Below, piece by piece: positions 674-61,920 of a stretch of DNA of 64,000 nucleotides. Position 1 is the stretch's first letter; every line of letters begins with the position of its first letter. The notes under the pieces were generated by a model. It saw only the letters and a program-made list of their open reading frames with translations, searched no databases and had not been told where the DNA came from. Source of the stretch: Eledone cirrhosa (taxonomy: Eukaryota); NCBI GenBank assembly GCA_964016885.1, contig OZ024742.1:236840001-236904000 (forward strand), given 5' to 3'. The position numbers and the translations under genes are program-made.

Positions 674-3600
674 CTACAGGATGGTATACAGAGAACGCCT
701 ATTTACACGAGCCATTCTCGCCACTATCACCCACCTTTCATAAAACTGGCTGTGGCCAAGCACCTCTCTCTGCATTCTTATCCTTCTTCCGAAGTGATAT
801 CGGAAGATGTAGACCAGACTATGGCCAGAGAGGAAGTTGCCTGACCTCAGACCTTTCAATCGTGTCCACCAAACAACCTCTTTCAACATGGCTATTACGC
901 ACAGAAAAACCGCCTTTGCTTCCTTTGTGAAGAGGGGAGGCGGTTTGATTGTCATCACGGACTCGGCGGTCAATTGAATCGGCGCCACCCGCGACAGCAG
1001 TCGTTCGGCGTAGCCCCACAGATCAGCCACACCCGGACATTGCACCAATGCGTGCGCAACGGTTTCTTCGTGACGCACGCATCTAGGGCAAATCTTTTTC
1101 GAGGGATCCCTGCCCGGGTGCCCGTGTCTGTAGAGCCTCTCTCGAACGGGTAGAGCCCCCCGGTAGCACTGCCAGGCTAGTGACTTCTGGAAGTTTTCCA
1201 TTGGTCCCGGGCCGAAAGTCCTACCGGACAGGCTGGCCAGTTCGTCCTCTTCCATGTCCAGCGACTCTCCAAGGGTGTCATCGCCCCTGCTAGCCACCAG
1301 CCCTCTATAGAATGATGAGGTGGATTCTCCACCGATGGCTTGGCCCGCTTGCCAGAGAGCCCTGAGCGCCTGAGCACACTCAGTGTGCCAGTCTCCCAGT
1401 TTTCCGGATCTTTGCTTGACCCAGGACTGCAGCTCGGTGAGCGAGACGAGTCTCGGAAAGGCTCGTTTCACGAACGGAGCCCACACCGGTTGACCAGTGA
1501 GGAATACCTGTAGGTGCCGTAGCCTTAATGCGTGCCTACGCATCATCAACCACGGCATCCCCAGCCCTCCTTTCGAAGGTTGTTGGCAGCAGATGGATCT
1601 TCTCACCATAGGAGGGCGCTTCTTCCAAAGAAATTGGAAGAGCATGCGTTCCATGGTGGTGAGTGTTTCCTTAGGGCAAGGCACGACAGTCAGGCGGTAG
1701 TAAGTGACGGACGCTATGTAAATGTTCGCCACCTGCGCCCGGCCTTTTAGGGACAGCTTACACTTGGCCCATTTCTGGGTTAGTGCAAAGACCTTGTTCG
1801 TAACCTCGTCCCAGTTCTTTTCCACCTGGAGGTCCGGTCCAAACCAGACCCCAAGCAACTTTACCGGGCCCTCCGTCCAGTGTCCGACGACACCGTCGGG
1901 AGGCATCGGTCTGCCTCTCCACGTTCCGAGTTGCAGCCCGATGGATTTTTCCCGGTTCAGTTTCGCTCCTGACAACCTTTCGTAATCCTCCAGTAAGGTA
2001 CCGATCGCCTCAATCTCCGAGTCGGTCGATACCATTACTGTTACGTCATCGGCGTAGGCCGACACCGCTTTTCTCAATCCTGGTTCCAGGGGGATACCCT
2101 GCAACAACTCTAACTTCCTCAGTAAAGGCTCGAGTGTCAATACGTACAGAAGGGAGGAGAGAAGGCACCCCTGTCGAATGGATCGTGTGATTTCGAACGG
2201 CTTCGAAAGGTAGCCGTTCACCTTGATCCTAGAACAGATGTGGTTGCTATGTAAGGCAGTGATCCAGCCTCTGAAAACAGGACCGAACCCAGCCGCCGCT
2301 AGCACCGCATCCAGGTAACCATGGTCGACCCTATCGAAGGCCTTAGACTGATCCAAGTTGATCAGGGCCCCACCGAAGCCGGGTTTGTTGCCAACCCTCT
2401 TTATGATGTATCGCATGAGGTGGAGGTTATCGTGAATGGACCTGGATGGGATAGCACATGTCTGCGCATCTCCCACCAGGCTACCCACGACAAGCGCCAA
2501 CCTCTTTGCTAACACCTTGGCCAAAATCTTTAACTCTGTGTTTAGCAGGGTTATGGGCCGAAAATGATTTATACTATCCCCCTTGTTCTCGTCCTTCCTC
2601 ACCAGCGAGACTACGCCCTTGGCTACAGAACAAGGAATTCTCCCGTTCTGCTGCCAATTGCAGTAGACCGCTTCGAGGAGTTCGGAGAAGAAGACCGGCA
2701 TTGCTAAATAAAGTTCGTAAGGTATACCATCGAGACCTGGAGATTTGCGTCTGCTGCATTGGCTCAGCGCATCCCCGATCTCATCAGCCGAGATTGGTCC
2801 CTCGCAGGACTATGCCTCTTCGCTCGAGATAAGCGGCAGGCCGTCGAGGTATGGACCGAAATCCACGTCCCCGCTCGGACCCTCGCCTCCCCCGAATAAT
2901 CGGGCAAAGTGCCTTTGAAAGGCCTCGCACATCTGCTTAGGCTCCCGGATCACCCGTCCATCCTCGTCTTGCAACGACCGGATGGTGGATCGATTTCCAC
3001 TCTTAGCTTCTGTCACGCGGGCTCAGCCAATGGCTTTGGCCCCCTCATTACCTAGAGCACGTATTTTACTTCGAATGACGCAGCCTTCGTGCTTTGCATC
3101 GAAAAACTGGTTCAAGGCCGTCCTCGATGCCAGCACTCTGGCCACATCTTCGCTCTTGATTTCCTCTTCTAATTTACCTGTTAATTCTTTCTCGTTTCTA
3201 TTCCTATCGTCAGCTAACATCTTGCTATAACTTATTGATTCTGTTCTAATCTCTCTTTTGAGAGATGCCCACCATCGGTTGTTGACGATTGCACCCGTCA
3301 ACCTCTCCTTAACTAATCTGCTAATCCGGTTTCTGTAAGTCTCTTTTGCCGGTAAAGACAAATTAAGTTTCCAGTAACCGGGACCCTGTTTATGTGTTTT
3401 CTCGAGATTGACTACGCAGGTCACTAATTTGTGATCCGTATAGCCAACCGTGCGCATTTCTGGACAGCTTAATATGTCCCTATCCTTACTTCTAACTAAG
3501 AATCTATCTAAGTACGATCTAGATTGACCACTGTGATTTCTCCACGTCCAGGTAGGCACAGATATCTAGTCGATATCTATCGACCAAGTTAAAACGGTCG

Positions 3601-10404: not shown

Positions 10405-10456
<52 letters not shown>

Positions 10457-10458
<2 letters not shown>

Positions 10459-10644
10459 CGAACGAGGTGTGGTAAGGAACCAGATGGACCATAACGCACC
10501 AGAGTACTCAACACTTAGGGTAGTAGAGTGGGTAATAGGAGAATGTTTAACCTCGACGGCAGAACTCAAGCCGTTTCGACGGCTATTTCTGGATCCAGAA
10601 ATAGCCGTCGAAACGGCTTGAGCTCTGCCGTCGGGGTTAAACAT

Positions 10645-10649
<5 letters not shown>
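10457..10649 (-). mobile_element. Family-A palindromic half-hammerhead element
   Basis: Palindrome centred on ggatcc (10591-10596) with an ~85-nt tail. (TA)n on both sides. Confidence 0.85.
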
Positions 10650-26773: not shown

Positions 26774-26973
26774 NNNNNNNNNNNNNNNNNNNNNNNNNNN
26801 NNNNNNNNNNNNNNNNNNNNNNNNNNNNNNNNNNNNNNNNNNNNNNNNNNNNNNNNNNNNNNNNNNNNNNNNNNNNNNNNNNNNNNNNNNNNNNNNNNNN
26901 NNNNNNNNNNNNNNNNNNNNNNNNNNNNNNNNNNNNNNNNNNNNNNNNNNNNNNNNNNNNNNNNNNNNNNNNN
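26774..26973. other. Assembly gap (200 N)
   Basis: Run of n. Confidence 1.
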
Positions 26974-26975
26974 TG

Positions 26976-27205
26976 AAGACCCCGACGGCAGAGCTCAAGC
27001 TCTTTCGACGGATATTTATGGACTAAATTAGATTTTTAGCGTGGTAGTAAATAGCCGAACTTTTCAAGGGATAATTCAGTATATGGGGTAATTCCATATA
27101 CGGAATTGCCCCTTGAAAAGTTCGGCTATTTACTACCACGCTAAAAATCTAATTTAGTCCAAAAGTAGCCGTCGAAACGGCTTCAGCTCTGCCGTCGGGG
27201 TCTTG
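26976..27205. mobile_element. Longest family-A element: ~230-bp fold-back with a hammerhead on each arm
   Basis: 26976-27086 is the imperfect reverse complement of 27094-27204. Confidence 0.85.
27108..27201 (+). ncRNA. Type I hammerhead, U3-A8 variant core (UUGAAAA)
   Basis: GCCCC-TTGAAAA(27113-19)-G..CGGCTATTT/AAGTAGCCG.C-GAAA(27174-77)-CGGC-ttcagctct-GCCG-TC-GGGGT. Predicted cut after 27196. Confidence 0.85.
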
Positions 27206-27209
27206 AATA

Positions 27210-27298
<89 letters not shown>

Positions 27299-41905: not shown

Positions 41906-41970
<65 letters not shown>

Positions 41971-41974
<4 letters not shown>

Positions 41975-42163
41975 AGAAAGTAAGACCCCCACGGCAGAGG
42001 TCAAGCCGTTTCGACGGCTATTTAGTCCAGAAATAGCCGCCGTCGAAACGGCTTGAGCTCTGCCGTCGGGGTCATACTTTCTCCTATTACCACTCTACTA
42101 CCCTAAGTACTGAGTACTCTGGTGCGTTATGGTCCATCTGGTTCCTTACCACAACTCCTTCTT
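41971..42163 (+). mobile_element. Family-A palindromic element
   Basis: Palindrome plus tail, in (TA)n. Confidence 0.88.
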
Positions 42164-42234
42164 TATATATATATATATAAATATATGTGTATATATATAT
42201 ATATATATATACTATATATATATATATATTTATT

Positions 42235-42560: not shown

Positions 42561-43731
42561 TGTTTCTTTATTAGCCACAGGGGCACAAAAGAAGGGGACA
42601 AATACAAAGGGGAAGTTTACATACAATAAAAACGCGTAAAATATTATCACAAATGCAATTTAAAAATTAGTCGATTTTCCCCAATAGGGGGAGACATTAC
42701 ATATGGGTAACACATACCCCCCCAAAAAATGTGCAACCCTCATCTCCAGGAGTAAGAAGAGTTCGTACCCCTTTCCTCTCCTCCTCTTTTTCCTCAACCT
42801 ACAGGCTGATATAGAGAGAAGCCCCATTCACTCGGGCCATTCTCGCCACTTTCACCCACCTTTCATAAAACTTGCTGGGGTACAGCACCTCTCTCTCCAT
42901 CCTGATTCTTCTTCCAAAGTGGTATTTGAAAAAAAGAATCAGTTGTTGGCCGGAGAGAAAGGTGTCTGACCTCAGCCCTTTCAACCTTGTCCACCATACA
43001 ACCTCTTTCGCCATAGCTATCACACAAAGGAAACCGCCTCTCCTTCGTTTTTGAAGTAGGGTGGCGGTTTGATCAATGGACTCAGTGGTCAACCGGATTG
43101 GTCCCACCCGCGACAATAGTCGTTTTACATAGCCCCACAGGTCGGTAACGCCCGGACAGTGTATGAATGCGTGCGCGACGGTTTCTTCGACAGATCTTTT
43201 TCGAAGGGTCCCTGCCCGGGCGCCCATGTCTGTAGAGCTTGTCACGAACTAGTAGAGCCCCTCGGTAGCACTGCCAGGCCAGGGACTTTGGGAAGTTGTC
43301 CATCGGTCCCGGGCGGAAGGTCTTACCGAATAGACAGGCCAGTTCGTCTTCCTCTACGCCTAGAGTTTCACCGAGCGCGTTGTCGCACTTGCTGCGGATC
43401 AACCCTCTATAGAATGACGAAGTGGAGTCTCCACTGATCGCCGGGTCCGCCTGCCAGAGGGCTGTGAGCGCCTGAGCACATTCGATGTGCCAGTCGCCCA
43501 TTTTCCTCGGTCTTTGCTTGACCCAGGACTGCAGCTCGGTCAGCAAGACGAGTCGTGGGAAGGCTCGCCTCACGAACGGGGCCCACACCGGTTGTCCGGT
43601 AAGGAATACGTAGAGGTGCCGCAGCCTGAGCGCGTGTTTGCGCATCGTCAGCCACGGCAATCCCAGCCCTCCGTTTGAAGGGTGTTGGCAGCAGATGGAT
43701 CTTCTCACCAAAGGAGCCCGCCTCTTCCAAA
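42561..43731 (-). mobile_element. 5'-truncated Tx1-like copy (GATA lineage)
   Basis: Homologous to the ORF2 C-terminus. (GATA)3 at 42545-56 and at 43732-43. Confidence 0.92.
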
Positions 43732-43744
43732 GATAGATAGATAC

Positions 43745-44354
43745 ATTTCTTTATTATCCACAAGGGCACAAAAGAAGGGACAAATACAAATGGGGAGTTT
43801 ACATACAGGTATATGAAAATAAAACTATTAATAAAATAACAAATAACAATTGAAATCCCCAATAGGGGGGAGGCGTTACACAGGGGTTGTACACACCCCG
43901 AAAAAATGTACAACCCTCATCTCCAGGAGCACCAAGAGTGAGTACTCTCTTCCTCTCTTCCTCTTTTTCCTCAACCTACAAGCTTATATAGAGAGAAGGC
44001 CCAACCACTCGGGCCATCTTTGCCACATTCACCCACCTTTTATAAAATTTGCTGGGGTACAGCACCTCTCTCTTCATCCTGATTCTTCTTCCAAAATGAT
44101 ATTTGAAAAAACGAATCAGTTGCTCGCCGGAGAGAAAGGTGTCTGACCTCAGCCCTTTTAACCTCGTCCACCATATAACCTCTTTCACCATAGCCATAAC
44201 ACATAGGAAAACCACCTCTCCCTCGTTTTTGAAGGAGGGGGTGGTTTGATCATGACAATGGACTCGGTGGTCAACTGGATTGGGCCCACCCGCGACAATA
44301 GTCGTTCTCCATAGCCCCACAGGTCGGTAACGCCCGGGCAGTGTACAAATGCGT

Positions 44355-45324: not shown

Positions 45325-48300
45325 ACTTTATTGGCCACAAGGGCCGACATATAGGGGACAATACAAAAGGCAGGGACAGTGGGGGCTTTACATAAATACG
45401 TGTTAAAAATATAAATAACAAAAAAAATATAACAAGAAAAATACTATGAAATTACCTAATAGGGGGAATAACCACCCGACACTTTTGAGGGCACCCGGGA
45501 AGGGTACCCTTCTCCTCCTGAAATTAACCAGCCTACAGGCGCATGCTCAGAGTAGACCTATTCACATGAGCCATTCTCGTTACATTCTCCCCACCTTTTA
45601 GCAAATGTACTGGGGGCAGTACTGCTCTCTCCACCTTCAGCTTCCTTGATGAGGGATTGGCCGAAGAGAAAAGTGCTTGTCTTCAGTCATTTCAAACTGG
45701 TCTACCACCCAAGCTCTTTTGCTACCACCACAAAACAGAGGAAAATTTCCTGTCCTTCATGACCAAAAGAAAGCGGCGGGTCGATAGCCGGATCCGTTCT
45801 ACACGCGACAACAGCTGTTCGACATCACTTCATAAGTCAGTAATACGCGAACACTGGACGAGTGCGTGCAGAGAGGTTCCGTCGTTCTGCGCGGATCTCG
45901 GGCAGGTCTGTCTGACAACACTTCGGTGCATGTAGTTTATCTCGAACCGGTAGTGCTCCCATCCCGGTAGCACTGCCAAGTGAGTGATTTCTGGAAGTCC
46001 TCGGCTTGAAGGTCCTCCGGAACAGACTGGTCAGTTCAAATTGATCGACCCCCGGAACCTTTCCGAATGCGTCGTCGCACTTGCCCACTACTAATCCTCT
46101 ATATAACTCGAGAGTGGAAGTTCCACTGACCGCATTGGCCGCCTGACAGAGGGTAGTGAGAGCCTGGCAACATTGCAGATGCCAGGCGCTCAGTCTCGGT
46201 CTCTTCTTGACCCAGGACTGAAACTCAGTCGAAGAGACGACTTGCGGAAATGCTCGTCTCACAAATGGCGATCACACTTGTTCACCGTTTAGGCAGAATA
46301 TCTGGAGATGCCGCAGTCACAGCGCATGTTTGCGCTTGATTAGCCACTTCATGCCCAGCTTTCCGTGACGAGGGTGCTGGCAGCAGATGGACCACCTCAC
46401 CAACGGAACCTGTCACTTCCACAAGAAGTTGAAGAGGAGCCGCTAGTGCTTGTCGAGGTCCGAATGGGGGCAAGACATGACGGTCAGGCGGTTGTAGATG
46501 ACGGACACGATGTACACGTTCGCCACCTCCGCCTGACCTTTCAGAGACAGCTTTCGCTCGGTCCATTTCTGGGTGAGAGTGGCTACCCTGATCGTAACCT
46601 CATCCAGATTCTTATCCACCTGAGGTCTGGTCTGAACCAAACCCCGTGCAACTTTACCGGTCCGTCAGTCCAGCACCCGACGACGCTGTTGGACGGCATA
46701 GATTTTCCTCTCCAGGCGCTGAGCTGCAAGCCCACCAACATTTCCGGGTTAATTTTTGCTCCCATCAAACTTTCATATTCCTCGTCGATTTCTGAGGTGT
46801 CCGACACCATCACGGTGATGTCGTCTGCATTAGCCTTTCCTCTTTCCAGTTCGAGTGGGATTCCCTGCAACAGCTTCATATTCCGCAGTAGAGACTCAAG
46901 AAACAATACGTACACAATGGAGAAGCAAGGGCCCTCTTTACGAACCGATCGGGAGAGCTGAAACGGCTCTGAAAGGTGGCCATTACCTTTCACCACCGAG
47001 CAGATGCCGCTGAGCATTGCAGCGATCCAGCCTCTGAAGACGGGACCAAAGCCTGCTGCATTGAAGACTGCATCCAGGTATCGATGGTCGACTCTAGCTT
47101 TCGATTGATCTAAATTGATCAGAGCCACACCAGAGCTAGGTTTTCATCCTAAACTCTCTATGATATATCACATGAGGTAGAGATTGTCGTGTATGGACTT
47201 GGTCGGGATTGCGCAAGTTTTCGCCTCCCTTACCAAATCATTGAAATCAAGTGTCAACCTCTTCACTATCACCTTGGCCAAAATCTTAAACTCTGTGTTG
47301 AACAGAGTTAATGAGCCTGAAGTTATTTAATGTATTCTCGCTCTGAAGCTGTCTCGGCTTTTCTAGATTTTAGTGAAATACATCTGTATTTCAGTATTCA
47401 CCTCTCCTTTGCTGCCATCACTTCTTCCAGGACGTTTAAGTTGGTCTAAGTCTTTTCTCTGTTTATAATCTTTTCCGCCTGGGCCAAACGTTCTTTCTTC
47501 TTAGTTAAATCAAAATTTTAATAAGTTTGAGAATTTGCAGCTGTGGCTGCAAAAGTAATCTTGTTGTTTACATTGTTGTTGCTGCTGGTAGTGTTGTCCT
47601 TGTTCATGTTGTTGTTGTTAGTGGTGATGGTGGTGGTGGTGGTATCATTGTTGATGCTGTTGTTGTGGTCGTTGCTGCTGCTGCTGCTGTTGGTTCCTTC
47701 GTTCTTGTCGTTGCATCTGATGCTGTCACCGCTGCCGACGTTATCGCTGCCGACGTTACCGCTGCCGACGTTATCGCTGCCGACGTTACCGCCGCCGACG
47801 TTATCGCTGCCGACGTTACCGCCGCCGACGTTACCGCCGCCGACGTTACCGCTGCCGACGTTACCGCCGCCGACGTTACCGCCACCGACGTTATCGCGGC
47901 CGGCGTTATCGCTGCCGACGTTACCGCTGCCGACGTTATTGCTGCCGACGTTACCGCCACCGACGTTATCGCTGTCGGCGTTATCGCTGCCGACGTTACC
48001 GCCACCGACGTTATCGCTGCCGGCGTTATCGCCACCGACGTTACCGCTGCCGACGTTACCGCTGCCGACGTTATCGCTGCCGACGTTACCGCTGCCGACG
48101 TTATCGCTGCCGACGTTACCGCTGCCGACGTTACCGCTGCCGACGTTACCGCTGCCGACGTTACCGCTGCAGACGTTATCGCTGCCGACGTTATCGCTGC
48201 CGGCGTTATCGCCACCGACGTTACCGCTGCCGACGTTACCGCTGCCGACGTTACCGCTGCAGACGTTATCGCTGCCGACGTTATCGCTGCCGACGTTACC

Positions 48301-48540
48301 GCTGCTACTGATTTTTGCTGGTGAGGGTGGCATAGTTAGTGGTGTCTGTAGTAGTAGTGATGGTGGTGGTGATGGTGGTGGTGGTGACACCATTGTTGCT
48401 TCTCTTTAGAGCGTTGTCCGAATCACTTTCGTGACCACACTTTTGTCGAGACCTTTGGCAGGAGGTGGAGGGGTTGTAACTCTATTTTTTTTTACAAAAG
48501 AAATTTTATAGCACAATTTATAATTCAAAGTATATATATT
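45325..48540 (-). mobile_element. Older sister-lineage Tx1-like LINE with a (TTA)n tail, probably internally deleted
   Basis: RT and C-terminal homology over 45530-47340 is secure. 47340-47520 resembles the ORF1 N-terminal block, which is less secure. Confidence 0.7.
47727..48306. repeat. 15-bp CpG-rich minisatellite, ~38 units (gctgccgacgtta(c/t)c)
   Basis: Read directly. Gives (G/D)NVG(S/G) repeats on the minus strand. Confidence 0.97.
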
Positions 48541-48549
48541 TGGGCCCAG

Positions 48550-49150
48550 GGTTTGCACAAGGTCAGCAATTTGGGGGGAGAGGGAAAGTCGATTAAATCG
48601 ACCCCAGTGCATTACTGGTGTTTTATTTTACCGACCCCGTAAGGATGAAAGACAAAGTTAACCTCGGCGGGATTTGAACTCAAATCAAAAAGGGTCGTAA
48701 CTCTATGCTGTAAAGCATGGCGTCCGACCCTCTACCGATACTGTTAATAATAATAAGGGTTTCTTATATAGACACAAAGCCAGCAATTTTTTTTTTGGGG
48801 GGGGGGGAGTCGATTAAATCGACCCCAGTGCATTACTGGTGCTTTATTTTATCGACCCCGTAAGGATGAAAGGCAAAGTTAACCCCGGCGGGATTTGAAC
48901 TCATATCATAAAGGGTCGTAACTCTATGCTGAAAAACATGGCGTCCGACCATCTACCGATACTGCCAATAATAATAATGATAATCGTTTCTACTTTTGGC
49001 ACAAGGCCAGCAATTATCCCAGTGCATTACTGGTACTTTATTCTATCGACCCCGTAAGGATGAAAGGCAAAGTTAACCTCGGCGGGATTTGAACTCAGAC
49101 TGTAAAGGGACGTAACTATGCTAGAAAGCATGGCGTCCGATGGCGTCCTA
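48550..49150 (-). mobile_element. Three head-to-tail SINE family 1 copies
   Basis: Units at ~48550-48743, 48757-48968 and 48984-49150, joined by (TAA)n. Confidence 0.9.
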
Positions 49151-49920: not shown

Positions 49921-50092
49921 AGTAAGTAAGTAAGTATAGGAGTAAGTAAGTACTGAGTACAGAATTAGCCGTCGAAACGGCTTGAGCTCAGCCGTCGGGG
50001 TCTTACTTACTCCTATTACCCACTCTACTACCCTAAGTATTGAGTACTTTGGTGCGTTATGGTCCACCTGGTTCCTTACCACTTTTCCCTCG

Positions 50093-50093
<1 letters not shown>
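49918..50093 (+). mobile_element. Family-A element (single arm plus tail)
   Basis: agaattagccgtcgaaacggcttgagctcagccgtcggggtc plus tail. Confidence 0.85.
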
Positions 50094-50155
<62 letters not shown>

Positions 50156-50551: not shown

Positions 50552-50567
50552 CATATATATATATATA

Positions 50568-50772
50568 TAGGAACGAGTAGGACCCCGACGGCTGAGCTCA
50601 AGCCGTTTCGACGGCTAATTCTGGACAGAATTCTGAGTCCAGAATTAGCCGTCGAAACGTCTTGAGCTCAGCCGTCGGGGTCCTACTCGTCCCTATTACC
50701 CACTCTACTACCCTAAGTATTGAGTACTTTGGTGCGTTATGGTCCACCTCGTTCCTTACCACATTTCCTTTG

Positions 50773-50775
<3 letters not shown>
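50568..50775 (+). mobile_element. Family-A palindromic element
   Basis: Palindrome 50568-50696 plus tail. Confidence 0.88.
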
Positions 50776-50840
<65 letters not shown>

Positions 50841-57288: not shown

Positions 57289-58749
57289 TATTTATATATA
57301 TATATACATGTAGTCAAACAATCTTTCCATCCCATCACTTTATCTCTCCCTTCACCTTTGTCATTACCTCTTTTATCCCTCTAGCATTGAAATATACTTT
57401 ATTTAAACACAACTCTTACCTTCGATATCCCTCATTTTATTTTTCGTATTATTATCACAACACCCAACAGTCTGTAGGCTGCTATCATCAGTTTATCCTT
57501 GTTTAAGCGATATGTCGCTGTAAAGCTATCCCCATTGGACCTCCGTCCATTGCGACGACGAATGTTCCAGTTGTTCGAATAACGGAATGGCCTGCTCGTG
57601 AAGTTTACGTACAAGTGACTGAGCATTCAATAGAGCATAGGTTTAACGCAATTCTAAAGAAGATTCTGCGCGACACAGTGTGTCACACGGTTGGCCTTTT
57701 GAATTACACTCTAATTTTTGCTAGCTGACTAGATTGGAGAAATGTGAAATAAAGTGTCTTGCTCTAGACTGCAACGACAGCCGGGAATCGAACTCACGAC
57801 CATACGACCATGAGCCTAACGTCCTAAACACTAGTCTTTCACAAAACCATTCCTCTATCGTTATAATCTAAATCTTTCATCCTAGCTTTCGTATGGCTTA
57901 GTGATTAGATGGAATCAAACTCCTAATATCGTAAGTTCGATTCCCGTACCAGGTGTTGCGCTATGTTCTGAGGCAGGACATTTTATCTCACGTTGATTCA
58001 GTCCTCTCAGCTGGAAAACATGAGTTGTACCGATAATTCAAATGACCAGCCTTGGCTCACATTTGCATCGCTGAATCTCCCTAAGAACCATATTAAGGGT
58101 GTATGTATTTGTGGAATGCTCCACGACTTGCATCACAATTCTACAAGCAGCTGTTCTGTTGTTCGAACTATTCGAACATTCCTCGTCAAAACCGACGGAG
58201 ATTCAGCCATTAACTAACACTTTTCGTCTTATTCCAACAACTACTAGCTGGTATCATCTGTCTCTCCTCGTTAAGAGATATCACACTACAAAGATGTTCC
58301 TATATCGATATCATCAGAGTCAAGCAGCCTCTATATGTGATAGAAGCTGTCAATATATGAGCTGATATCGAATAGTTTCATATCTTATTTTATATTTTTA
58401 TAACACCTACCTGTGTGTGTGTGTGTCTGTATGTGTGTGTGTATGCGTGTTGCGCGTATTCGTGTGTACGCGTATGCGTGTGTGTGTGAATGTTCTCGCA
58501 CAACGTTTATTGTCTGTCTGTATGCCTATCTGTCTGCCTCTACCTATCGATCTATCTAGCATTTATCTATCTACCTACCTATCTATCTATGTGTCTATTT
58601 GTCGGCCCGTCTGTTTCCTGGTGTGCCCGAAACTCTCTCTCTCTCTCTCTCTCTTTCTCTTTCTCATCCCCCTTTCTCTTTCTCATCTCCTCTCTCTCTC
58701 TCGTTCTACCCCCTCTTTCTACCTGTATATATATATATGTATATATATA

Positions 58750-58945
58750 ATAGGATAAAGTATGACCCCGACGGCAGAACTCAAGCCGTTTCGACGGCTA
58801 TTTCTTGACTAGAAATAGCCGTCGAAACGGCTTGAGCTCTGCCGGCGGGGTCATACTTTCTCCTATTACCCACTCTACTACCCTAAGTATTGAGTACTCT
58901 GGTGCGTTATGGTCCATCTAGTTCCTTACCACAACTCCTCCGTTA
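58750..58945 (+). mobile_element. Family-A palindromic element
   Basis: Palindrome plus tail. Confidence 0.88.
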
Positions 58946-59268
58946 TATATATACATAGATAGATTGCTATAAAGATAGTGAGACAGACAGACACATATAT
59001 ATATATATATATATATATAGATAGATACGTAGATAGGTATGCATGTATATATTTAAATATATGTATGTACAAGTGTATGTGACTGTGTGTGAGTGTGTTT
59101 GTGTATGTGTGTCTGTGTGTCTGTGTGTGTCTCCCATTAAACCCCATATAGATGTTCCCCGTTACATCCGACGTTCTGTCTTTGTTTTTCCACCAGAAAT
59201 AACACTACAATATTATTTCCTCGTATCTCTTCAATATATATTTCTTAATATATATATATATATATTTC

Positions 59269-59661: not shown

Positions 59662-59743
<82 letters not shown>

Positions 59744-59745
<2 letters not shown>

Positions 59746-60035
59746 GGAACGACTAGGACCCCGACGGCTGAGCTCAAGCCGTTTCGACGGCTAATTCTAA
59801 TAATTGTTTCTACTTTAGGCACAAGGCCAGCAATTACCCAGTGCATTACTGGTACTTTATTTTATCGACCCCATAAGGATGAAAGGCAAAGTCAACCTAA
59901 TTCTAATAATGCCGTCGAAACGGCTTGAGCTCAGCCGTCGGGGTCCTACTCGTTCCTATTACCCACTCTACTACTCTAAGTATTGAGTACTTTGGTGCGT
60001 TATGGTCCATCTGGTTCCGTACCACATTTCCTTCG

Positions 60036-60037
<2 letters not shown>
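59744..60037 (+). mobile_element. Family-A palindrome interrupted at its centre by a truncated SINE family 1 copy
   Basis: SINE at ~59805-59896(-), flanked by duplicated ctaattctaataat. Confidence 0.85.
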
Positions 60038-60115
<78 letters not shown>

Positions 60116-60500: not shown

Positions 60501-60617
60501 TTTAAAAAAATCATTTTTTTTAAAAAAGGGTGGGAGGGGGGGGGGGGGGGGGGGGGCAAAAAATATATATAGCTGTCGAAACGGCCGGAGCTCAGCCGTC
60601 GGAGTCCTGAATCTTTT

Positions 60618-61157: not shown

Positions 61158-61920
61158 CTCTCTCCTCTCTCAGTTGTCTCACCATCTCTTTCTCCGTCTC
61201 TCCTCTCTCAGTTGTCTCACCATCTCTTTCTCCGTCTCTCCTCTCTCAGTTGTCTCACCATCTCTTTCTCCGTCTCTCCTCTCTCAGTTGTCTCACCATC
61301 TCTTTCTCCGTCTCTCCTCTCTCAGTTGTCTCACCATCTCTTTCTCTTCTCTCTCCTCTCTCAGTTGTCTCACCATCTCTTTCTCCGTCTCTCCTCTCTC
61401 AGTTGTCTCACCATCTCTTTCTCCGTCTCTCCTCTCACAGTTGTCTCACCATCTCTTTCTCCGTCTCTCCTCTCTCAGTTGTCTCACCATCTCTTTCTCC
61501 GTCTTTCCTCTCTCAGTTGTCTCACCATCTCTTTCTCTTCTCTCTCCTCTCTCAGTTGTCTCACCATCTCTTTCTCCGTCTCTCCTCTCTCAGTTGTCTC
61601 ACCATCTCTTTCTCCGTCTCTCCTCTCTCAGTTGTCTCACCATCTCTTTCTCCGTCTCTCCTCTCTCAGTTGTCTCACCATCTCTTTCTCCGTCTCTCCT
61701 CTCTCAGTTGTCTCACCATCTCTTTCTCCGTCTCTCCTCTCTCAGTTGTCTCACCATCTCTTTCTCCGTCTCTCCTCTCTCAGTTGTCTCACCATCTCTT
61801 TCTCTTCTCTCTCCTCTCTCAGTTGTCTCACCATCTCTTTCTCCGTCTCTCCTCTCTCAGTTGTCTCACCATCTCTTTCTCCGTCTCTCCTCTCTCAGTT
61901 GTCTCACCATCTCTTTCTCC
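61158..61920. repeat. 38-bp pyrimidine-rich minisatellite, ~20 units
   Basis: Unit tctctcctctctcagttgtctcaccatctctttctccg, with occasional 41-bp variants. Confidence 0.96.

Follow-up and report, generated by a model that had tools for sequence, protein, structure and literature searches.

The stretch of Eledone cirrhosa DNA analysed here (64,000 nt, hereafter the window) carries at 27108-27201 a hammerhead ribozyme fold, all parts of which were found in place by sequence check and folding (Table 1). A complete hammerhead with a U3-A8 core had been claimed at this site in a preliminary description of the DNA, and its parts lie where that description had put them. Three stems surround the core and the ends meet in stem I, which is the layout of a type I hammerhead. 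G10.1 (27120) faces C11.1 (27173) at the start of stem II, the nine pairs of which (27123-27131 with 27163-27171) enclose a 31-nt loop II with an inner hairpin at 27140-27158. The sequence GAAA follows at 27174-27177, and the cut is predicted after C17 (27196). Stem III (27177-27181 with 27191-27195) is present as described earlier but has five pairs, not four, when A15.1-U16.1 is counted. Loop III, which reads TTCAGCTCT, had been called palindromic; this is true of the family, in which the palindrome spans 6-8 nt, but in the window copy a G>C change at 27184 has shrunk it to AGCT.

Table 1. Positions of the ribozyme, of the inverted repeat that holds it and of the other family loci in the window
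Feature	Positions	Strand	Remarks
Short palindrome, no core	10452..10645	.	tail on left arm
Left arm, inverted copy of element 3' end	26974..27085	-	TTGAAAA core kept (27067-27061); damage in stems II and III
Fold-back junction between arms	27086..27094	.	short inverted piece of stem I leader
Right arm, element 3' end (pseudo-LTR end)	27095..27212	+	Hydra-clade Penelope-like retroelement, subfamily A1, tail-less form
Stem I, 5' strand	27108..27112	+	G at 27108, where the subfamily majority has A
Core U3 U4 G5 A6 A7 A8 A9 (TTGAAAA)	27113..27119	+	from the sequence
Stem II region	27120..27173	+	G10.1-C11.1, 2x1 internal loop, 9 pairs, 31-nt loop II
G12 A13 A14, stem III (5 pairs), 9-nt loop III, U16.1, C17	27174..27196	+	
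Stem I, 3' strand	27197..27201	+	pairs with 27108-27112
Microsatellite next to the insertion, (TC)n followed by (TA)n	27212..27295	.	
Short palindrome, no core	41970..42169	.	tail on right arm
Single arm with tail, no core	49956..50099	+	
Short palindrome, no core	50567..50779	.	tail on right arm
Short palindrome, no core	58748..58949	.	tail on right arm
Short palindrome, no core	59743..60042	.	~110 unrelated bases at centre
Single arm, older O-type subfamily, no core	60570..60612	+	

When the right arm was folded alone, pairing probabilities were 0.85-0.99 in stems I and III and 0.78-0.85 for the six stem II pairs that were checked. The pair G10.1-C11.1, next to the 2x1 internal loop, had a probability of 0.09; it is conserved in the family and is regular in the related family P (see below). 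A distal stem I with a bulge was also predicted, and candidate pseudoknots were spotted by eye. The folding energy of the locus was not above chance (z = -1.19; 26 of 200 shuffled sequences fold as well). The Rfam hammerhead models did not match 27086-27215, where two weak unrelated matches were the only ones, and a search of the whole window with Rfam gave 275 matches at E up to 5, with no hammerhead among the 150 listed (microsatellite look-alikes). With the energy at chance level and no Rfam match, the case for a hammerhead rests on conservation across the family.

The ribozyme lies in an inverted repeat that extends from 26974 to ~27212 and has arms identical at 102 of 112 positions. An assembly gap of 200 N (26774-26973) abuts the left arm and hides the outer end and the tail expected there. 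Seven positions of the right arm within 27094-27208 depart from the majority sequence of its subfamily. RNA across both arms is predicted to form a hairpin of -178 kcal/mol, in which three ribozyme pairs that were checked have a probability of 0. Because the two arms would pair with each other, cleavage after 27196 in RNA read through the window locus is unlikely under this folding model, and the locus, an old and decayed insertion with a broken loop III palindrome, is probably silent.

The seven other family loci in the window end in loop II or 3' of it and lack the core. The earlier statement that the core is kept only at the present locus is upheld, and here both arms carry TTGAAAA. The centre of one palindrome (59797-59910) consists of ~110 bases of another repeat, and a similar sequence forms a 221-bp tandem at 48570-48977. 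Minisatellites with units of 15 bp and 38 bp lie at 47728-48305 and 61159-61920, respectively. Open frames of another retrotransposon, which by their motifs we take to be LINE-like, are present at 677-2809 (-) and 43085-43750 (-), with similar copies in loci L031 and L035.

Long copies of the family continue upstream into an ORF, and a protein search of the 3.0-Gb host genome scored 150 matches, many with open frames of ~784 codons. At locus L101, tandem units of 3,531 bp (~3.53 kb) contain a single 717-aa ORF in which RT is followed by a GIY-YIG-like endonuclease, with the motifs RWR (position 37), DKT (117), YRDD (348), a CxCx5C linker (572), VIY..YIG (591), CxxC (670), and CxH (689). GxKF/Y and CX2-5CxxC are absent from this ORF, and a local Pfam scan of it returned no family. 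The first ATG lies ~190 nt downstream of the cut site. The copies display the tandem or partial tandem units, inverted truncated copy, and optional tail of EN+ Penelope-like retroelements (PLEs), and their flanks reveal a preference for insertion into (TA)n. Among the 120 listed of 2,049 outside protein homologues, identity is 38-54%, the closest two being 54% and 50% identical. By its motifs, and with reference proteins compared by eye, the family is an EN+ PLE of the Hydra clade. The earlier link between the palindromes and PLEs is thus borne out by the RT plus GIY-YIG ORF and its motifs; no coding piece of the PLE lies within the window itself. Neptune, Nematis, and Naiad were rejected because the CX2-5CxxC linker is missing and the endonuclease is not N-terminal as in Naiad, and a non-LTR retrozyme was rejected because the tandem units are 3.5 kb long and coding and the short copies are inverted. 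In loci L101, L102, L103, and L106, near-identical 3.53-kb units that have kept their ORFs intact follow one another in arrays of up to four; they represent a very young subfamily that is possibly still active. A metagenome scan gave eight loci of one family, three of them full length (L161-L163; 36-37% identical), and in these three relatives the stop codon is followed after ~130 nt by a canonical type I hammerhead; in a 37%-identical relative the canonical core was seen at the same place as in the family studied here.

Exact matches to the 3' half of the ribozyme number 54,002 in the genome, and matches to the core in context number 3,616 with U3-A8 and 1,241 with another base at position 3; because the search patterns differ, the ratio of 3' halves to cores of about 11 is only rough. 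Insertions end 18 nt or ~98 nt after the cut site, in (TA)n, and the tail of this family is ~80 nt long. When the distinct inverted pairs from the fetched loci and the window were collected (n = 112), 82 combined one tail arm with one tail-less arm, 10 had no tail, none had two tails, 14 had a full-length arm, and 6 were unreadable. The points at which the short palindromes fold back are clustered toward the 3' side of loop II, at its one conserved stretch (L101:1221-1236 and the window copies), and 10 of 87 full-length-copy ends lie at -32 to -44. This conserved stretch is perhaps a protein-binding site or a tertiary contact that stops RT. Judged by their arms and ends, the palindromes are truncated, inverted, head-to-head 3' insertion ends of the PLE. 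We infer that the endonuclease would nick both strands of AT-rich DNA, that reverse transcription, primed by each nick, would begin at one of a pair of internal start sites immediately 3' of the ribozyme, and that both cDNAs would mostly stop early, chiefly in loop II, before being joined head to head. Such early stops would leave palindromes without a core, and at the window locus the cDNA would have run ~50 nt further, so that the core was kept. For the element PAc of Anolis, two internal RT start sites have been described that define the tail, as has cutting of both strands at AT-rich DNA (PMC11167929). The PLE reading accounts for a repeat of >50,000 copies that standard hammerhead searches overlook.

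For the comparisons below, copies were sorted into groups for which we coined the labels P, O, A, B, and C, and counts were taken from copies not picked by core pattern. Across 13 subfamily majorities (O1, with three copies, was excluded), all 12 core positions considered (U4, G5, A6, A9, G10.1, C11.1, G12, A13, A14, A15.1, U16.1, and C17) are invariant, compared with 12 of 55 unpaired non-core columns (Fisher p = 4.5e-7, although columns are not independent); without family P, 24 of the 55 non-core columns are invariant (p = 2e-4). N7 varies, being A, G, or T among the majorities. In 14 real copies, 89.6% of cells pair in the fold, against at most 51% in slid controls, and 6 of 21 pairs, three of them in stem II, have changed on both sides, a number reached by 53 of 500 shuffles; pairing control (a) ignores the kinship of the copies. 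The conservation pattern indicates that the ribozyme fold is under selection, although RT binding could be what maintains the conserved 3' half. Stems II and III share sequence (27163-27181 in the window), and in most subfamilies the 3' strand of the former can pair with the 5' strand of the latter in a competing hairpin that replaces both stems; the hammerhead fold is predicted to take a share of 0.96 in A1, 0.74 in B3, and 0.05 in C3 and C4.

The core of the window's subfamily had been expected to read TTGANAA in a family consensus, and it does so in 28 of 28 long copies that were not picked by core pattern. Accordingly, U3-A8 is found in all 28 A1 copies, as it is in 20/20 A2 and 41/41 B copies. 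Family P has C3-G8 in 18 of 22 copies (the BLAST query was itself C3-G8). Family O (n = 42) is mixed, with 19 copies U3·G8, 16 U3-A8, 5 C3-G8, and 2 other, and its A8 is linked to a loop variant of its own in 15 of 16 cases; O2 and O3 were merged in the subfamily sorting. The A0 bin (n = 53) includes 28 U3·G8 and 20 U3-A8 copies. In C1-C4, C3·A8 occurs in 21 of 24 copies, two U3-A8 copies having been sorted into C4, and N7 is G in 23 of 24. A Watson-Crick 3-8 pair is therefore typical of A1, A2, B, and O3 (U-A) and of P and O1 (C-G), and non-Watson-Crick combinations are typical of A0 and O2 (U·G) and C1-C4 (C·A); within this set of families, canonical CUGANGA is confined to P and O1. Among the first 100 of the 1,241 matches without U3, 94 read CTGAGAA and none has G8. 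We rejected the idea that the 82 matches without A8 are scattered mutations, as 23 of them are TTGAAGA and most of those viewed come from an older subfamily.

A tree was built from the last 750 coding bases, with the ribozyme left out, for 54 copies (36 of 68 recent ones, after 15 near-identical and 17 short copies had been dropped, and 18 older ones) and rooted on one P copy. It is a ladder in the order O, A0, A1, A2, C, B, along which terminal branches fall from 0.04-0.11 to <0.01, and stepwise changes in the loop and bulge sequences follow this order as well. Along it, the subfamilies run from C3-G8 through U3·G8, U3-A8 (the window type), and C3·A8 to U3-A8; for O1, a single coding copy decides whether its C3-G8 is read as ancestral or as a reversal. 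By parsimony, there were four changes at position 3 and two at position 8, all six of them transitions, so that position 3 remained a pyrimidine and position 8 a purine. The C3·A8 copies (about 1,200) sit on the trunk. In topology tests, for which the groups were named after a tree had been seen, C3·A8 as one side clade (p-AU = 1.9e-5) and a single origin of A8 (p-AU = 6e-51) were both rejected. The tree and these tests together indicate that U3-A8 arose three times, twice out of U3·G8 and once out of C3·A8. When branches were summed by hand, the trunk lacked a Watson-Crick 3-8 pair over at least ~0.19 of its ~0.33 substitutions per site, 0.11 of which is a single unsampled branch with U·G at both ends. 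As far as can be read from sequence, a compensatory change in a tertiary pair of a ribozyme is here preserved stepwise, with its intermediates included. The preliminary description had treated U-A as compensatory; that it is simply a compensated pair under selection is not supported, as whole subfamilies were amplified with U3·G8 and C3·A8; the single mutants it had proposed for a cleavage assay thus exist as natural subfamilies.

The 5' ends of copies bear on whether the ribozyme cuts. Of 406 pattern matches, 90 were fetched and three internal to arrays were removed, which left 87 copies extending into the 5' UTR. The whole upstream ribozyme is spanned by 49 of them; the end falls within the ribozyme but 5' of the cut in 13, at the cut itself (-5 to +3) in 4, and 3' of the cut in 21. 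In this set, 5' ends do not accumulate at the cut site (4 of 87, with ~2 expected; p = 0.15). Because 62 of the 87 run at least 6 nt beyond the upstream cut site, their templates must have been whole across it, either uncut or re-ligated. Of seven runs listed, the one recorded as RNA gave a single contig, located outside the ribozyme, and three others consist of contigs whose kind is not given. We consider it probable, on the pattern of the copies, that the hammerhead cuts the RNA of the element slowly or conditionally and not at every chance, since the 3-8 pair shifted while the element kept spreading. The RNA that is copied would have to be whole across the cut site, be it uncut or re-ligated; fast cutting would therefore be costly, and weak 3-8 pairs would be tolerated while the rest of the core is kept. 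PLE hammerheads have been described as slow (PMC4209133), and that of PAc needs the ORF protein, while its mutants still insert in vitro (PMC11167929). In a mutational scan, every change at 3 or 8 save the G-C swap gave low activity (PMC9901934), which would cover U3-A8, so that the cores here may be close to dead; U3-A8 is called active in vitro in PMC3088659.

Efficient cutting would be compatible with the same copies if the pieces were ligated into unit-length circles that serve as the real templates, with all 3-8 states made active enough by peripheral contacts or the ORF protein. A ligated junction is indistinguishable from an uncut one, so that the 62 read-through copies fit this model, which was proposed in PMC4209133; the arrays of near-identical units and the threefold return of the lineage to U3-A8 from weak pairs also speak for it. 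We regard it as rather unlikely, given the persistence of weak pairs over so much of the trunk (at least ~0.19 of ~0.33 substitutions per site), the predicted fold probability of 0.05 in C3 and C4, and the failure to find cut-site reads for the Anolis element, as stated in PMC11167929. It is also conceivable that the fold persists because RT binds to it or because it belongs to the promoter, with cleavage no longer selected and positions 3 and 8 left to drift. The six changes at these positions and the RT start sites right beside the fold would suit such a role, as would the lack of effect of hammerhead mutants on insertion in vitro (PMC11167929) and the success of Naiad PLEs without canonical hammerheads (PMC8557442). 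However, drift would not be expected to leave the other 12 core positions invariant, including U4, G5, A6, and A9 on the 5' side, while N7 is free, nor to yield six changes that are all transitions preserving a pyrimidine at 3 and a purine at 8, and we consider this explanation quite improbable.

For the C subfamilies only, the core might be read in a shifted register, in which G7 pairs with C3, N7 is absent, and a spare A precedes G10.1. U3>C did arrive together with G at position 7, and PLE hammerheads usually have an additional base ahead of G10.1 (PMC4209133), but G7 is retained in B1-B3 despite the return of U3 and may thus be merely inherited. Moreover, no active core without N7 was found in the excerpted literature on such cores, where the one match is an A6C variant, and we think such a register unlikely. 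That the palindromes are instead MITE-like or otherwise non-autonomous, and resemble a hammerhead by chance, can be considered refuted: the inverted arms, the energy no better than that of shuffles, and the missing Rfam match would agree with it, but the arms represent the 3' end of a retroelement that carries an ORF, face each other head to head around variable centres, and differ by the tail, and related families have canonical CUGANGA at the same place. Going further than slow or conditional cutting, which we favor, one may view the genome as a fossil archive in which a catalytic RNA can be followed across fitness valleys, from C3-G8 through U3·G8, U3-A8, and CUGAGAA to U3-A8, each amplified as its own subfamily. 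CUGAGAA would then be an active new core type (C·A or a shifted register without N7), and cutting would have been tuned down because RT needs RNA that is whole across the cut site. This wider view is possible, but we hold it to be doubtful.

U3-A8 variants had been said to be reported with PLEs, and PMC4209133 confirms this, with about 1,300 matches in Schistosoma; U3-A8 in Penelope hammerheads is already published and so is not in itself new. The amplified U3·G8 and C3·A8 subfamilies, and the path through weak pairs that they mark, appear to be new: we found no report of either subfamily in the hammerhead and PLE literature as excerpted, although older rate studies may describe similar variants. 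The Cercyon PLEs of Schistosoma mansoni share U3-A8 in a pseudo-LTR, many copies, some opposite-strand pairs, and a palindromic loop III with the present family; their hammerheads lack a stable helix III and need dimers, whereas here helix III can form in the monomer, and U3·G8 or C3·A8 subfamilies are not described for them in the excerpts of PMC4209133. Hydra-clade PLEs (PMC8557442) share the C-terminal GIY-YIG, RW[KR], DKT, CxCx5C, and CxxC and CxH around the catalytic E and N, as well as (TA)n targets, a hammerhead near the 3' end, an inverted truncated copy, and the tail. The Hydra rows of File S2 of that article have a CTGANGA core in 26 of 26 cases, with a stem III of 3-4 pairs and a loop II of 3-10 nt; the Eledone family differs in its TTGANAA, TTGANGA, or CTGAGAA cores, 5-pair stem III, and ~31-nt loop II, and is further set apart by its 3.5-kb unit and ~80-nt tail. 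Its hammerhead is also unlike that of the octopus element Hydra-1_Obim (PMC8557442). The Poseidon element PAc has in common with it two internal RT start sites, AT-rich targets, and a hammerhead beside the start sites, but belongs to another clade, has canonical C3-G8, and begins its ORF inside the hammerhead (PMC11167929). Natural core variants with U3-A8 covariation and weak stem II starts are known (PMC3088659), but those in the excerpted text are isolated examples and not a lineage series with unpaired or wobble intermediates.

The roles proposed for PLE hammerheads comprise precursor processing, the formation of circles, and mere parasitism (PMC4209133, PMC8557442, and PMC11167929). As the natural variants described here occur in one scaffold and are each tied to a wave of amplification, activity can be compared with transposition success, and the family offers a ready set of variants with which to ask whether Penelope hammerheads need to cut at all. 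Outside the subfamilies sorted above, two decayed copies (L245 and L248) come from yet another old relative, which has a C3-G8 core but whose stem II differs. A fragment of a different RT with a YVDD motif, presumably Penelope-like by its motifs, lies at L036:476-1385 (-).
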